Assembly (NCBI GenBank): GCA_016929435.1
Contig: JAFGIV010000007.1
Coordinates: 1 to 52,061, forward strand
Length of the DNA: 52,061 nucleotides
From: Candidatus Uhrbacteria bacterium
Lineage (GTDB): Bacteria; Patescibacteriota; Patescibacteriia; SG8-24
Reading direction: 5' to 3'
Made by a program: the position numbers and the translations under genes. Below, piece after piece: positions 14,678 through 32,678 of this stretch. Each line of letters begins with the position of its first letter. Within the stretch, counting starts at the first letter, position 1. The notes under the pieces are model-generated. The model was not told the DNA's origin. It made no database searches and was given only the letters and a program-made list of their open reading frames with translations.

Positions 14678-15271
14678 TCACCACATTCTCACCATCAGGA
14701 ATGCCGCCAAGACGGAAAAAAGGACGGCTCCAACCGACCCGGAATCCTTCCTGACGACCTTGGCCACAAACGGTTGGGCCGTCAGGACCAGCGCCAGTGA
14801 CAGGCCCAACAGGCCGGTATCCGGGGACACCATCGGTATCTCGCAAATGACGGCAACGGCAAGCGCATCCAACAAAAGGATCGTCAGGGCAATGCACGTT
14901 CCGCCGATAACGGCAGCCAGCAACCGACCGGGGCCATGATCCAACCAACGGCCACGAGCCCTGACGAAAGCGTGTGCGGCAAAAACAATCGCCAACGGCA
15001 AAATGACGGCGAAAACCCTTGGGCTGAACAGGAACGACGGCACCAAAACGATCGCCAACAGGGCCATGACATGTGCGCCCTTGATCTCAGGGAACCTTGC
15101 CTTACGACACCGCAGACCGAAAACAACGACGGAAGAGAATAAAACGGCCAACCACAATCCCGGGGAGGGCCGATGCCTAAGGAGAATCGGGCCAACAAAA
15201 AAAGCGGCGGCCACGATCAGCGGGATATCGACACCTCCTTGACCGGGGTCAATTTTATTGTTGTCGGGCAT
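14678..15271 (-). CDS. Multi-pass membrane hypothetical protein
   Basis: ~6-7 hydrophobic segments. Confidence 0.65.
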   Translation of the reverse strand: MPDNNKIDPGQGGVDIPLIVAAAFFVGPILLRHRPSPGLWLAVLFSSVVVFGLRCRKARFPEIKGAHVMALLAIVLVPSFLFSPRVFAVILPLAIVFAAHAFVRARGRWLDHGPGRLLAAVIGGTCIALTILLLDALAVAVICEIPMVSPDTGLLGLSLALVLTAQPFVAKVVRKDSGSVGAVLFSVLAAFLMVRMW

Positions 15272-15388: not shown

Positions 15389-15949
15389 TCATTTCGTCAT
15401 CAAGACCGTCGATTTAACTATCTTATCAATCAGCCGACGATCATCACCCTCATAGACATCCGAAGAGTAGATGTAGGACTTTCCGGACGCACTAATGACA
15501 AACCAAACGGAATTGAGGTCACCCATGGTGGTTCCCTCGCATCTTACTGCCTCAAGATGTCCGGCTATCCTTATTCTTCCCGTCTCCTTGCGCTCGCCAC
15601 ACGATTCGCCGTCGGCGATACCGTCACTGACCACCAACCTTAACCACACGGGAACGCCTCCGGAACCGGAAATGCCGTCGGTAGATGCGAGAGATTGGAG
15701 ATATTCCTGTTTCCCGATATCATAGACGAAAAAATCGCCCTGAAAGTCAGAATGCCCCGCATGAGATTCCACAGCAAAGCCATTAGGGTATCTAAAACCA
15801 ACGTTACGATCATTATCTTGATACACGCTGTCCAAAACGAAAAAGTCTCTCGCCAAAATCAAAATTCCATACGAAACGACGCAGGCGAAAACGACGACAA
15901 ACAACGAAACTGTCCGACGAGATGATTTTTTGGAAATATTTTTTTTCAT
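15389..15949 (-). CDS. Single-TM anchored extracytoplasmic protein (PsbP/Mog1-like fold suspected)
   Basis: Basic N-terminus plus TM helix, GFRYPNGF, C-terminal ..DKIVKSTV. Confidence 0.6.
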   Translation of the reverse strand: MKKNISKKSSRRTVSLFVVVFACVVSYGILILARDFFVLDSVYQDNDRNVGFRYPNGFAVESHAGHSDFQGDFFVYDIGKQEYLQSLASTDGISGSGGVPVWLRLVVSDGIADGESCGERKETGRIRIAGHLEAVRCEGTTMGDLNSVWFVISASGKSYIYSSDVYEGDDRRLIDKIVKSTVLMTK

Positions 15950-16032
15950 ATAGTTACAAAACGGTATTAAATTGGGGTCACCCATAGACAGGCGACCCCA
16001 TAAATTATACATCTTCCGAATTTCGAGTCATG

Positions 16033-17601
16033 TCACAAAGAGCAAGACGATACTGTGGAACTGGTGTCATGGTAGCCGCAGCTCCCCGCACCTAACCCAA
16101 CAGGTAAGTCCGAAAAGCTGCCTGACACGGAAGCGGCTCCCCTTACGCCGGAATTCTGCCATTGGAAATGCAGGTGATCGCCGCAACCATTCTTGCTCCC
16201 GGAGCTGTTCCCGGTTGCCCCCTCATCGGCCAACCAACACCCTTGCGCAACAGGATTGCATCCGGTCACCCTATAATTGGTATTTTCGAGATGAGCATAG
16301 AAAGTGTAACGTCCGTCGCTATGATAAATCATCACGTAATTTCCCCAGCCGCCGTTACATGAGCACGGGTTGGCATAAATTGAACATCCAACGGTATCAA
16401 TCGCATTGCACGACACAGAAGACGATCCGCTAGATATGGTACCGCTGGCCGAAGCCACGATTTCATCGTATCCGGAGCGATACACCTGAAAATCAACGGC
16501 ATACTGCATTGAACCGCCAAGGGAATGAGAAGATACCTGACAACCGCCTCCATAAGCCGCACCCACCTGGGTTATTGAGGTGTCTTCATAGGCATGCATC
16601 GGCATCTTGTAGGATACGGCGCTCCTAGAGCTGACCTCAACAGGGGTAGTTATCCCATTGCTGACGAACAATCTCATTTTATCAGAATCGAAATTGACGA
16701 ACCCCACGCCGTTGCGACTCATGTGACGAATCTGATCGGCCCTGAAGTGGCTGATACCCGAGTGTTCTGCTGACTTACCGTACATACCCACAACACCGCC
16801 AAGCAGTCCCTTAGGAAATCGAATGAATGTGCCGTTTTTTAGCCTAACGGAGAATTCCTTTTTTCCTTCGGTCAGGAAAAAATTACTGGACAGGAAGAAT
16901 GTGGCCGGGAGAGACAACCCCGATGGGGAAATCGGTACATGCCTAAAGCTGCATGTACCATCCCCCATGTCTGCGGCATCCAACACACAAGCCTCCACCC
17001 CAAGTCCGTCATCGCTCCATATGAAGTTATCCGGTACAAGACCATCGACAGAAAAAATGATCTCCGACGCTTTTTCCCTAACATTGTATAAAGTCAGTCC
17101 AGATCCCCCTAAACCAGTAAAGCCAAAAACGATGACTTCGGGATCAACAGGGCTCCATACAGCATTGATGATCACGCAACCTGGCTGATATACGGTCACC
17201 AATTCGCCTCTCACATTTTCAATCACCAACAAACCAGACGGCGATAACTCGTCAATGTTTTTCCCTAAGGAGTCCTCCAGCGTGATGCTGGCGTTTCCGC
17301 CGCCATAATTTAAGGCAAGAGGCGTATAGGCAATCAATGTCCTATCGGAGTTTGTTCCCGAAAAAGACAGCACCGGCATTTTCGTCTCAATTTCGTTGAC
17401 AATGGCACTGCCTCTATCGTCAAACGATATTTGGTATGCCAAACGGTCAAAACCAATTGGGATAGAATTCTCAACAATTGCGAAAGTACCCCGATCCGTC
17501 TCATGATTCGAGAGGTCTTCTTCGCACCCAATGTAGAAAGTCGAACACAGTACCAAAACAACCACGGCCGATACGGCCCCTCTTTCCGCTGTCTTTCCCA
17601 T
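16033..17601 (-). CDS. Putative lipoprotein with beta-propeller-like N-terminus and C-terminal M23 metallopeptidase domain
   Basis: Signal plus FYIG-C; SH..YAVDF (H/D ligands), IVASASG, GWGNYVMIYH, FYAHL, GATGNS, HLHFQ. Confidence 0.8.
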   Translation of the reverse strand: MGKTAERGAVSAVVVLVLCSTFYIGCEEDLSNHETDRGTFAIVENSIPIGFDRLAYQISFDDRGSAIVNEIETKMPVLSFSGTNSDRTLIAYTPLALNYGGGNASITLEDSLGKNIDELSPSGLLVIENVRGELVTVYQPGCVIINAVWSPVDPEVIVFGFTGLGGSGLTLYNVREKASEIIFSVDGLVPDNFIWSDDGLGVEACVLDAADMGDGTCSFRHVPISPSGLSLPATFFLSSNFFLTEGKKEFSVRLKNGTFIRFPKGLLGGVVGMYGKSAEHSGISHFRADQIRHMSRNGVGFVNFDSDKMRLFVSNGITTPVEVSSRSAVSYKMPMHAYEDTSITQVGAAYGGGCQVSSHSLGGSMQYAVDFQVYRSGYDEIVASASGTISSGSSSVSCNAIDTVGCSIYANPCSCNGGWGNYVMIYHSDGRYTFYAHLENTNYRVTGCNPVAQGCWLADEGATGNSSGSKNGCGDHLHFQWQNSGVRGAASVSGSFSDLPVGLGAGSCGYHDTSSTVSSCSL

Positions 17602-17728: not shown

Positions 17729-18454
17729 TCAAATCACCGGCTTCCTCCCTACCGTCACCAGGTTTCCGTCCCCCTGCCGGCGGCGTTCGCCGGAACGGCG
17801 GTTCTCCACGACGTCGAAACCGGTTTGGCGGCAGAGGCGGGACAGTTCGCCGAGGGTAAAGGCATGATAGAATCGGTTGGCCCTAACCTGGCCGCTGCGG
17901 GTCCAGGGCATCATGACGTCGGTCCAATCCAAATCGGACCGCCCAATGGCCTTCAGGATGATGTTGCGGGCAACGAAACGGAGGCGGCGGTCAATGCGCC
18001 ACAGGTCCCAGTTGGTCATGAGCAGCCAACCGCCCGGTTTCAGGACCCGACGGATCTCCCCCATCGCCTGAAGGCGATAGCGGACCGAGGGGATGTGATG
18101 GAGGGAGGCAATCGCCAAAACCGCATCGAAAGAACCGTCTTCATACGGCAAAGTCAACATGGAACCGACCCTAAAATTGACCAGTGGGTCGGGGTATTCC
18201 TTCCTGGCTCGGGCAATCAAACCCTCGGAAACGTCCAGACCCTCATAATCAACGGCCAGATCGACAAAAAGCCTCAGGGCCCGACCGCTGCCGCACCCCA
18301 AATCCAGCACCCGATCCCCGTTCCTGATACGCCGAATGAAGGGCTCGATTTCCGGCCACCAGATACGGTCACGGGTAGCGCCAAACTCGGCGGCAATGGT
18401 ATTGTATCCGTCGTGGACCGATTCCAGTATTTTATCGGCTATGGACTCTTTCAT
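17729..18454 (-). CDS. Trm9/ALKBH8-like class I SAM methyltransferase (candidate tRNA cm5U methyltransferase)
   Basis: VHDGYNTIAAEFGATR..WP, VLDLGCGSGR, AIASLHHIPS...R..RVLKPGG, DVMMPW, RFYHAFTLGEL. Confidence 0.75.
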   Translation of the reverse strand: MKESIADKILESVHDGYNTIAAEFGATRDRIWWPEIEPFIRRIRNGDRVLDLGCGSGRALRLFVDLAVDYEGLDVSEGLIARARKEYPDPLVNFRVGSMLTLPYEDGSFDAVLAIASLHHIPSVRYRLQAMGEIRRVLKPGGWLLMTNWDLWRIDRRLRFVARNIILKAIGRSDLDWTDVMMPWTRSGQVRANRFYHAFTLGELSRLCRQTGFDVVENRRSGERRRQGDGNLVTVGRKPVI

Positions 18455-18485
18455 GATTTTGACTTGCCGGTTTCCGCCGTCCCGA

Positions 18486-18625
18486 CCCCCAAACCCCCTC
18501 CCTCCGGGATACTTACGCCTGAAGGGGGCTTATGCGGAAGGAATAATTTATGAAATATCGTCACGGCTTGCCTGCCATAAACAAACCCCTTCCTCATAAG
18601 TCCCCCTGCCAGGGGGATTTGGGGG
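18486..18625. mobile_element. Palindromic MITE/REP-like element (same family as 10792-11014) overlapping the elp3 start
   Basis: CCCCCAAACCCCCT..AAGGGGGCTTATGCGGAAGG / CCTTCCTCATAAGTCCCCCTGCCAGGGGGATTTGGGGG. Confidence 0.65.
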
Positions 18626-20280
18626 GGCGGCCAGGCATTGCCACCCGCATAATTGAAGCATTTATTGACGAAGGCGTCCAAACCCGGGACGGACTTTTTG
18701 CCGTAGCCCGACGGCTGTCCAGGGGACAGTCCCGTTTGCCCAACATCGCCGATTTACGCGCCGCTTACCTGAAAAGAGTTGACGAGAAACCGGACACGGC
18801 AAACCCTATCCTGGACCGGATGCTCCGCCGCCGCGATGTCCGCTCCCTTTCCGGCGTGGCCATCGTGACGGTCCTGACCAAGCCCTGGCCCTGTCCGGGA
18901 CAGTGCGCCTACTGCCCGAACGAGGTCAAGATGCCGAAAAGCTACCTGTCCAACGAGCCGGCGGCCATGCGCGCCCTGTCCCTGAAATTCGACCCGTGGC
19001 TTCAGGTCACCCGCCGGCTGGAGGCCCTGACCATGAACGGCCATCCGAACGACAAGATCGAGCTGATCGTGAAGGGCGGCACCTGGTCCTCCTACCGAAC
19101 CGGATACCAGGACTGGTTCATCAGGCGCTGTTTCGATGCGGCCAACGATTTTGGCCGAAAACGCCGACAGGCCGCCCGAACCCTGAAACAGTCGCAGGGG
19201 GCAAACGAGACCGCCGGACACCGGATAATCGGCCTGACGCTGGAGACCAGGCCGGATTGCGTCACCCCAAAGGAAATCCGACGGCTGCGACACCTGGGAT
19301 GCACCCGGGTGGAAATGGGGGTACAGTCGCTGGATGACGACATCCTGAAATCCTGCCGCCGCGGACACGGCCAATCCGAAACCGCCCGGGCCACCAAACT
19401 GCTGAAAGAATCCGGGTTCAAGGTCGATTACCACCTGATGCCCCAACTCCCCGGCGCTTCCCCGGCCTCTGACCTCGATTCGATGCATCAGGTCTTCTCT
19501 GATCCGAGGTTCAGGCCGGACATGGTCAAGATCTATCCCTGTGTCGTAATCAAAAACACCGCCCTCTACGACTGGTGGGAATCGGGGGAATACCGGCCCT
19601 ATCCGACCGGTCGGCTGGTCGATGTCCTGATCCGGTTCAAGTCCGAAATCCCCCGCTATTGCCGCATCTCCCGCCTGGCACGGGACATCCCCTCCACCTC
19701 AATCATTGCCGGAAACGCCGTCACCAACCTCCGCCAGGTCATAGGGGAGGAAATGAAGCGGCGGAAAATGACCTGCCGCTGTCTCCGTTGCCGGGAAATC
19801 GGCCATGTCTCAAAAGACAATCCCCGCCTGGCCGACCTGAAACCGAAACTGTTCGTCGACCGCTACGAGTCCTCCGGCGGACAGGAGCTGTTCTTGAGCT
19901 TCGAGGACTCCAAGCGCCGGGCCGTCTTCGCCTTCTGCCGCCTGCGCCTGCCGAACAATAATCCTGATCAGGATGTGGGGGAAATCAGGAAACTTCTGCC
20001 GGAAATAAAAAACGCCGCATTTGTCCGTGAACTCCACACTTACGGCAATTTGGTGTCCATCGGAACGAAAAACAGGCAGGCCAGCCAACATAAGGGTTTA
20101 GGGGCGAAACTGATGGCCGAGGCCGAACGGCAGGCCAAGAGGGCCGGATTCCGGAAACTGGCCGTCATCTCCGGCATTGGCGTCCGGGACTACTACCGCA
20201 AGCTCGGATACCGGCTGAATGGGACCTACATGACGAAATCCCTGCAACATCCGGTTCCCGCAAAAAACGAAACGCAGTAA
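18550..20280 (+). CDS. elp3: tRNA uridine(34) acetyltransferase Elp3 (radical SAM + GNAT/KAT)
   Basis: RSLSGVAIV, CPGQCAYCP, PKSYLSNEPAAMRA, KIELIVKGGTW, IGLTLETRPD, KIYPC, RDIP, CRCLRCRE, RELHTYG, QHKGLG, ISGIGVRDYYRKLGY. Confidence 0.95.
   Translation: MKYRHGLPAINKPLPHKSPCQGDLGGRPGIATRIIEAFIDEGVQTRDGLFAVARRLSRGQSRLPNIADLRAAYLKRVDEKPDTANPILDRMLRRRDVRSLSGVAIVTVLTKPWPCPGQCAYCPNEVKMPKSYLSNEPAAMRALSLKFDPWLQVTRRLEALTMNGHPNDKIELIVKGGTWSSYRTGYQDWFIRRCFDAANDFGRKRRQAARTLKQSQGANETAGHRIIGLTLETRPDCVTPKEIRRLRHLGCTRVEMGVQSLDDDILKSCRRGHGQSETARATKLLKESGFKVDYHLMPQLPGASPASDLDSMHQVFSDPRFRPDMVKIYPCVVIKNTALYDWWESGEYRPYPTGRLVDVLIRFKSEIPRYCRISRLARDIPSTSIIAGNAVTNLRQVIGEEMKRRKMTCRCLRCREIGHVSKDNPRLADLKPKLFVDRYESSGGQELFLSFEDSKRRAVFAFCRLRLPNNNPDQDVGEIRKLLPEIKNAAFVRELHTYGNLVSIGTKNRQASQHKGLGAKLMAEAERQAKRAGFRKLAVISGIGVRDYYRKLGYRLNGTYMTKSLQHPVPAKNETQ

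Positions 20281-29667: not shown

Positions 29668-32678
<3,011 letters not shown>

Follow-up and report, generated by a model that had tools for sequence, protein, structure and literature searches.

A divergent gene pair for Elp3 and a predicted Trm9-type methyltransferase as a candidate wobble-uridine modification module in Patescibacteria

We analysed a stretch of 52,061 nucleotides (hereafter the window) from a Candidatus Uhrbacteria bacterium (assembly GCA_016929435.1, contig JAFGIV010000007.1) and found on it, placed head to head, the genes for the tRNA-modifying enzyme Elp3 and for a class I S-adenosylmethionine (SAM)-dependent methyltransferase. Modification of the wobble uridine (U34) is nearly universal, and textbooks assign it to MnmE/MnmG in bacteria and organelles and to Elp3/Elongator with Trm9-Trm112 in archaea and eukaryotes. 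It is likely that the two genes form a minimal Elp3-to-Trm9 module of the archaeal/eukaryotic type in a bacterium, which would yield 5-methoxycarbonylmethyluridine (mcm5U34) and, together with MnmA, its 2-thiolated form mcm5s2U34, probably without Trm112. According to this proposal Elp3 would use a radical-SAM reaction with acetyl-CoA to add a carboxymethyl group to C5 of U34, giving 5-carboxymethyluridine (cm5U), and the divergently encoded methyltransferase, a putative Trm9 orthologue, would use SAM to esterify the cm5U carboxyl group to mcm5U34. MnmA, encoded elsewhere in the genome, would probably add the 2-thio group on tRNA-Lys/Glu/Gln, resulting in mcm5s2U. The module would act in place of the MnmE/MnmG route, which was not found in this genome, and the methyltransferase would probably work without the Trm112 activator required by eukaryotic and archaeal Trm9; the short spacer common to both genes would allow co-regulation of the two consecutive enzymes. 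We infer the conversion of cm5U to mcm5U, the MnmA step and the independence of Trm112 from sequence and genomic context. An earlier sequence-only reading of this DNA had already suggested a two-gene cm5U-to-mcm5U module, and the computational tests it proposed (profile comparison, synteny, searches for MnmE/MnmG and Trm112) support that suggestion.

The two open reading frames (ORFs) run divergently across a 95-bp gap, with exactly the coordinates, strands and head-to-head layout given in the sequence-only reading, and all motifs listed there occur in the translation of the methyltransferase (SVHDGYNTIAAEFGATRDRIWWPE, IASLHH...RRVLKPGG, DVMMPW and RFYHAFTLGEL). The features of the pair are as follows:

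17729..18454, minus strand: ORF of a Trm9-family class I SAM-dependent methyltransferase, 241 aa, predicted tRNA (carboxymethyluridine34-5-O)-methyltransferase
18020..18307, minus strand: SAM-binding Rossmann core of the methyltransferase (residues 50-145; D51 in LDLGCG, H119/H120), PF08241 Methyltransf_11, E 1.9e-24
18455..18549, no strand: intergenic spacer common to both divergent genes, 95 bp, from reading of the sequence
18550..20280, plus strand: ORF of Elp3, 576 aa, radical-SAM and GNAT/KAT (lysine acetyltransferase) domains, TIGR01211, predicted cm5U34 synthase
18892..19761, plus strand: radical-SAM domain and Radical_SAM_C of Elp3 (residues 115-404), PF04055 at 115-302 and PF16199 at 323-404
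20077..20217, plus strand: GNAT/KAT acetyl-CoA-binding core of Elp3 (residues 510-556, QHKGLGAKLM), PF00583, PF13673 and PF13508

The linkage of the two genes was followed in 401 genomes of the phylum, comprising the genome of the window and 400 genomes drawn evenly. With the methyltransferase as a single-sequence query (E<=1e-25) matches were obtained in 73 of the 401 genomes, and Elp3 was found in 151 (148 above the cutoff). All 73 methyltransferase-positive genomes also carry Elp3. A single contig bears both genes in divergent orientation in 68 of these genomes, and in 64 of the 68 the gap from match to match is 17-892 bp; in the remaining five of the 73 the genes are either 446 kb apart (one genome) or on different contigs (four genomes). 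The arrangement is thus far from chance. Because the single-sequence query is insensitive, we added a search with profile A1, an alignment of 29 methyltransferase homologues, of the ORFs within 3 kb on either side of Elp3 in 77 of the 78 remaining Elp3 genomes (one was without coordinates). A Trm9-like ORF (>=75 bits) is divergently adjacent at 29 of these 77 further Elp3 loci, and at four of the 48 loci without such an ORF the sequence available upstream is shorter than 1.2 kb. In total a divergent partner is present at 97 of 150 Elp3 loci, distributed over many families of the phylum, so that both the co-occurrence and the synteny with elp3 raised in the sequence-only reading are borne out. 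The flanking genes in the window (an M23 peptidase, an alpha/beta-hydrolase-like protein and NAD synthase) are unrelated to the pair, and it is therefore the pair itself that is the conserved unit.

Outside the sample, seven loci in named genomes encode full-length relatives of the methyltransferase. Five of the seven (L008, L010, L011, L012 and L037) have Elp3 next to them in divergent orientation, and a sixth (L009), from a Saccharibacteria-labelled metagenome-assembled genome (MAG; G401), runs into the end of its contig, with Elp3 located at the start of another contig of the same genome. The pair at L037 belongs to an Anaerolineales-labelled MAG of the Chloroflexota (G405) with a size of 4.6 Mb, so that the module also extends beyond the reduced genomes of the candidate phyla radiation (CPR). 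MnmG was not found in four of five tested named genomes, among them G405, which has no match at E<=1e-20.

Regarding the identity of the methyltransferase, the profile comparison points to Trm9. In a search of 177,635 PDB sequences, A1 ranked chain 5cm2_Z first (E 1.9e-25, 92.6 bits, profile positions 25-222 on chain positions 2-187), which Foldseek identifies as Trm9 of Yarrowia lipolytica (Yl). The runner-up sequences reach at most 83.3 bits and mostly match the SAM core alone, and 5cm2_Z is one of only two top-row chains aligned through the C-terminal half. In the single-sequence PDB search the same chain came seventh, with the longest span and as the only match aligned through residue 218. 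The regions outside the SAM core are also nearer to Trm9 than to other methyltransferases in profile A1, by a modest margin. Many homologues bear the automatic label 'ubiquinone/menaquinone biosynthesis C-methylase UbiE', and some have automatic Joint Genome Institute (JGI) labels 'TRM9' or 'alkB family protein 8'; the Trm9 assignment would correct many of the 'UbiE' auto-annotations in CPR genomes. The nearest clusters in the ESM Atlas come from CPR phyla, Chloroflexota and archaeal phyla and are without functional names, and thus serve as leads only. We make no claim on whether the genes passed from archaea to CPR or from CPR to archaea, for which a rooted tree would be required. A fusion to an AlkB-type domain was not seen among the only five longer homologues found at E<=1e-20, which is weak evidence. 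Two of these five, the metagenome proteins P0121 and P0122 (494 and 520 aa), have an additional PF03808 (WecG/TagA-type glycosyltransferase) domain.

The active-site residues favour the same assignment. According to the available part of PMC4678810, the Saccharomyces cerevisiae (Sc) Trm9 variants R29A, D72A, H116A, W145A, W168A, R241A, Y243A and N271A have lost all or most of their activity, R29, H115/H116, W145, R241 and N271 are suggested to hold the carboxylate of cm5U and its uracil ring in place, and the Yl equivalents are R40, H126/H127, W156, W179, R192 and N222. We mapped these positions through the alignment of A1 with 5cm2_Z, where the chain index equals the Yl number minus 35, an offset that fits six landmark residues. 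Conservation was counted in a family set of 65 sequences, made up of the 29 of A1, the 29 new Elp3 neighbours and the seven from named genomes. The equivalents in the window protein are Y17 (ScY18; 65/65), R28 (ScR29; 65/65), D51 (ScD72; 63/65), H119 and H120 (ScH115/H116; 62/65 and 65/65), W149 (ScW145; 64/65), W184 (ScW168; 55/65, and another aromatic residue in six more) and R194 (ScR241; 60/65); D51 and H120 are invariant in A1. Y196 corresponds to ScY243, its Yl number being derived by the offset, and N231 is the probable equivalent of ScN271, with N in 39 of the 39 aligned family sequences and gaps in 26. As judged from these alignments, the equivalents of the residues on which the activity of yeast Trm9 depends are, Y196 excepted, almost invariant across the family. 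The AlphaFold2 (AF2) model of the methyltransferase has a mean predicted local distance difference test (pLDDT) value of 93.3 and a Rossmann-like strand order, and the class I SAM methyltransferase fold is present together with the SAM-binding acidic residue, D51. It is the match to the profile together with the residues of the active site, and not the fold, that speaks for the METHYLTRANSFERASE being a Trm9, and the protein is accordingly annotated here as a predicted Trm9 orthologue and putative cm5U34 carboxyl methyltransferase. A predicted complex of two copies of the methyltransferase (score 0.00, mark 0.42) gives no evidence either way on a homodimer.

A number of results weigh against this assignment and against the proposed module, beginning with the generic character of the matches. 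The methyltransferase hits only generic class I Pfam families, including PF08241 and PF13649, it lies far below every curated NCBIfam cutoff, again with generic matches only, and the lead of Trm9 over the next PDB sequence in the A1 search is modest (92.6 against 83.3 bits). The sequence-only reading had asked for a structure comparison in addition to a profile comparison, and whereas profile and residues favour Trm9, the fold alone does not separate it from other enzymes. In Foldseek Trm9 is second, with a template modelling (TM) score of 0.82 by target, after an uncharacterised Methanosarcina methyltransferase; in VIA-align it occupies rank 28 (Z 20.7) in a list headed by METTL6 (Z 24.4), with about 50 class I methyltransferases at Z 20-24. 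Fold rank was dropped as evidence for Trm9, since dozens of class I methyltransferases are about equally similar to the model. The entry PDB 6F5Z in the Foldseek listing is Hvo_0019-Trm112 and carries no weight for the assignment. The generic Pfam families, the many homologues automatically named UbiE and the natural-product methyltransferases among the top fold matches would all be expected of a generic small-molecule or lipid methyltransferase of the UbiE/MenG kind, whose position beside elp3 would be meaningless. We nevertheless consider such an enzyme highly improbable. The UbiE/MenG quinone C-methyltransferase models of NCBIfam give only 44-51 bits against cutoffs of 158-327 (TIGR01934 49.4 against 158.35, NF001241 51.3 against 327 and NF001244 44.1 against 216), and membership was rejected; the divergent adjacency is kept at 97 of 150 Elp3 loci in many families as well as in the Chloroflexota-labelled MAG, with unrelated flanks in the window; and by the single-sequence query the family never occurs without Elp3 in the phylum sample. 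Membership in the DVU_1556 methyltransferase family (NF045667) was also rejected, at 71.9 bits against a cutoff of 155.

Linkage to Elp3 demonstrates functional coupling only and not the chemistry. The methyltransferase could therefore be a partner of Elp3 with a reaction other than that of Trm9, methylating another atom of a U34 side chain made by Elp3, accepting only the 2-thiolated form or making another C5-substituted uridine (xm5U), with a product other than mcm5U. The substrate-contacting position Y196 is Y in only 32 of the 65 family sequences, and archaeal U34 chemistry holds unidentified species according to the available part of PMC6144793. The same part of that source calls for caution in another respect, as HVO_0574, which similarity had marked out as Trm9, turned out to have no activity. 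The assignment of N231, moreover, is based on aligned ranges and not on a residue alignment: it was taken from VIA-align (model 31-241 on chain 42-232, constant offset 9), as the hidden Markov model alignment ends there. The nearly invariant equivalents of R29, H115/H116, W145, R241 and N271 in turn argue for the same substrate geometry, and we regard a different reaction as rather unlikely. The Trm9 function itself is a prediction for this protein and for its bacterial relatives.

The linkage, too, has its exceptions. At least 44 of the 150 Elp3 loci are without a Trm9-like gene within 3 kb by the A1 profile, and Elp3 therefore does not always need one; in the lineages concerned cm5U may be the end product, or another enzyme may act downstream of Elp3. 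Judged by eye, many of these partnerless loci (among L088-L164) come from few families of the sample, f32 for example. The only family member seen without Elp3 lies outside the 401-genome sample. It is the seventh of the loci in named genomes (L013, 226 bits to A1), located downstream of a RecQ-like fragment in an Omnitrophota-labelled MAG (G404), in which MnmG is present (852 bits) and Elp3 was not detected; completeness and binning of this MAG are not established.

Elp3 from all three domains of life is established to form cm5U at U34 by radical-SAM chemistry with acetyl-CoA. The sequence-only reading had described the window protein as a full Elp3 (radical SAM and KAT), which holds: it matches NCBIfam TIGR01211 with 567.1 bits (cutoff 350; residues 35-565 on model positions 3-522), and Pfam detects Radical_SAM, Radical_SAM_C and GNAT. 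A CxxxCxxC cluster motif is found near residues 114-121. The protein is full length in comparison with the solved archaeal and bacterial Elp3 structures (archaeal MinElp3, 6iaz, E 1.3e-134; bacterial DmcElp3, 5l7j, E 3.3e-124), and its Fe-S cluster cysteine triad, its Cys-rich linker and its acetyl-CoA motif each line up with their counterparts in MinElp3. This Cys-rich, Zn-binding linker is typical of Elp3 from bacteria and archaea and is described as conserved in both in the available part of PMC6367351. From its family membership we infer that the window Elp3 forms cm5U34. DmcElp3 of Dehalococcoides mccartyi (PDB 5L7J) is likewise a bacterial stand-alone Elp3; in the part of PMC6367351 available, it is reported to be without the extended basic N-terminus, whereas the window protein has about 90 extra N-terminal residues, and no bacterial Trm9 partner is mentioned there. 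The same text calls it 'a rare example of bacterial Elp3s', in contrast to the 151 of 401 sampled genomes of a single phylum with Elp3 found here. Some Elp3 matches lie in frames of 700-742 aa (G077:C19:8403-9923, G147:C4:31556-32665 and G035:C34:19220-20566) compared with about 520-580 aa for most, and could be extended or fused forms.

The genome of the window has a size of 1.10 Mb in 28 contigs and is 99.86% complete; this size and the nearest named relatives, labelled Patescibacteria, fit the description as a CPR bacterium in the sequence-only reading. Neither MnmG nor MnmE was found in it, which the sequence-only reading had considered possible; matches to MnmE are limited to the GTPase domains of other proteins and below the cutoff. 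MnmA is present (392 bits against a cutoff of 237), and ARAGORN lists the xm5U substrate tRNAs Lys-UUU, Glu-UUC, Gln-UUG, Arg-UCU, Leu-UAA and Gly-UCC. The bacterial MnmE/MnmG route, which with MnmC and MnmA leads to the carboxymethylaminomethyl and methylaminomethyl derivatives cmnm5/mnm5(s2)U34, has the same target nucleotide and the same set of tRNAs, and its MnmA is kept here, but its other enzymes and their chemistry are unrelated to Elp3-Trm9. The 401 genomes include 11 with MnmG, and Elp3 was found in none of these 11. That the pair replaces MnmEG, as had been suggested, is nonetheless only one reading of these data, because 239 of the 401 genomes have neither MnmG nor Elp3.

Trm112 (PF03966) was likewise not found in the 99.86%-complete genome, the best match having an E value of 0.095 and lying inside a 673-aa frame. 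Among the 73 methyltransferase-positive genomes 70 are without a PF03966 match at E<=0.001, and the matches in the other three are all in frames of more than 300 aa. As Trm112 was not found, the methyltransferase probably acts without this activator. Alternatively, the pair could make mcm5U with the methyltransferase needing an activator all the same, be it a divergent Trm112 beyond the reach of PF03966 or an unrelated small protein. PF03966 is a short model of 40 positions that was searched in six frames, so that a divergent zinc-ribbon partner could escape, which tells against Trm112 independence; in the control it was matched in only 7 of 14 genomes at E<=0.001, and CPR proteins are often highly divergent. 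Against such a hidden activator stand the lack of any PF03966 match at E<=0.09 in the genome of the window, the figures for the 73 genomes given above, and the window itself, among whose ORFs no conserved small ORF accompanies the pair. We judge a hidden activator to be unlikely and retain Trm112 independence as the probable case. In the whole sample PF03966 matches occur in 23 of 401 genomes (15 above the cutoff), most of them in frames of about 300-360 aa. Examples of matches in large frames are G095:C4:186969-187112, G299:C15:8945-9049 and G294:C4:61889-61978, and only G367 has a 64-aa frame, which suggests that Trm112-like zinc ribbons are fused to larger proteins in this phylum.

The closest known systems are eukaryotic and archaeal. 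Trm9-Trm112 of S. cerevisiae and Y. lipolytica (PDB 5CM2) and the methyltransferase domain of ALKBH8 with TRMT112 are class I SAM methyltransferases of the same type, eukaryotic Trm9 is the best PDB profile match of the window protein over nearly its full length, and equivalents of its residues R29, D72, H116, W145, W168, R241 and Y243 are present. Eukaryotic Trm9/ALKBH8 acts after Elp3, and the same order is predicted for the window methyltransferase. In contrast, the eukaryotic enzyme has Trm112 as partner in an obligate heterodimer, while none was found for the window protein, and ALKBH8 contains AlkB and RRM domains, of which the window protein has neither. The window protein is also bacterial, lies head to head with Elp3 and is about 24-28% identical to eukaryotic Trm9. 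Like the pair in the window, the archaeal systems of Haloferax volcanii (HVO_1032) and Sulfolobus solfataricus combine a stand-alone Elp3 (no Elp1/2/4-6) with a Trm9 orthologue. In the available part of PMC6144793, HvoTrm9-Trm112 turns cm5U into mcm5U, mcm5U is shown in H. volcanii, and neither Trm9 nor Trm112 is dispensable in vivo, a difference to the window's genome with no Trm112 found. Thiolation would also differ, with bacterial MnmA expected in the genome of the window and the Ncs6/Tuc1 type in the archaeal system.

The novelty implied by the sequence-only reading has to be reduced, as the clustering of the Elp3 and Trm9 genes in S. solfataricus is known (PMC2584109, available part) and 'TRM9' auto-labels exist. 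The texts found in our literature search, so far as they were available, contain no description of a bacterial Trm9, and on Elp3 together with Patescibacteria they mention elp3 only in the context of Thorarchaeia. No link of Elp3 to CPR, Patescibacteria, Saccharibacteria or Parcubacteria was found in the literature searched; supplementary gene tables of CPR genomes could already list the pair. For archaea mcm5U is documented in PMC6144793 (part available).

To our knowledge, mcm5U has so far been documented only in eukaryotes and archaea. The pair appears to represent a known pathway in a new, bacterial form that apparently dispenses with Trm112. We see about an even chance that a large part of the Patescibacteria and at least some Chloroflexota make mcm5U34/mcm5s2U34 by an Elp3-Trm9 pair together with MnmA, with a Trm9 that either lost its need for Trm112 or never had one, and that this is the main xm5U route of a major radiation. 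If so, a major bacterial radiation with tiny genomes would use the 'other' pathway in a stripped-down form, consisting of two adjacent genes with neither Elongator accessory subunits nor Trm112, mcm5(s2)U would be extended to Bacteria, and Elp3-Trm9 would be no mere curiosity of Dehalococcoides. It would likewise bear on the evolutionary history of Elp3, called rare in bacteria. A naturally Trm112-independent Trm9 would help to study why the eukaryotic enzyme needs its activator, and the pair would provide a compact, portable two-gene cassette to install mcm5U in heterologous hosts.

Within the spacer 18455-18549 a ribosome-binding-like site, GGAAGGA, is located 8 nt 5' of the Elp3 ATG. Both promoters are presumed to lie in this spacer as well; their positions are not established, because a scan for the sigma-70 consensus gave no site within it (two sites elsewhere against 1.0 expected). 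A search of sequencing runs found one DNA data set, a possible source, and no RNA run with the window sequence. On the minus strand, positions 16033-17601 of the window encode a protein of 522 aa, whose M23 peptidase domain is confined to residues 409-485 and whose first approximately 400 residues have no Pfam match; the neighbouring minus-strand ORFs 14678-15271 and 15389-16012 are also without Pfam match.

Among the tRNAs of the window's genome ARAGORN, with introns allowed or not, found no tRNA-Trp and no tRNA-Tyr, and only tRNA-Thr(CGU) for Thr; the missing tRNAs may have been lost in the assembly, which is broken into 28 contigs, or may have an unusual structure. A tRNA-Ile(UAU) is encoded at G000:C20:45421-45496, there are only two CAU tRNAs (C17:31187-31261 and 31390-31466), and a search for TilS (TIGR02432) gave no match. 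It is therefore probably a tRNA-Ile with U34 that reads AUA, a rarity among bacteria.

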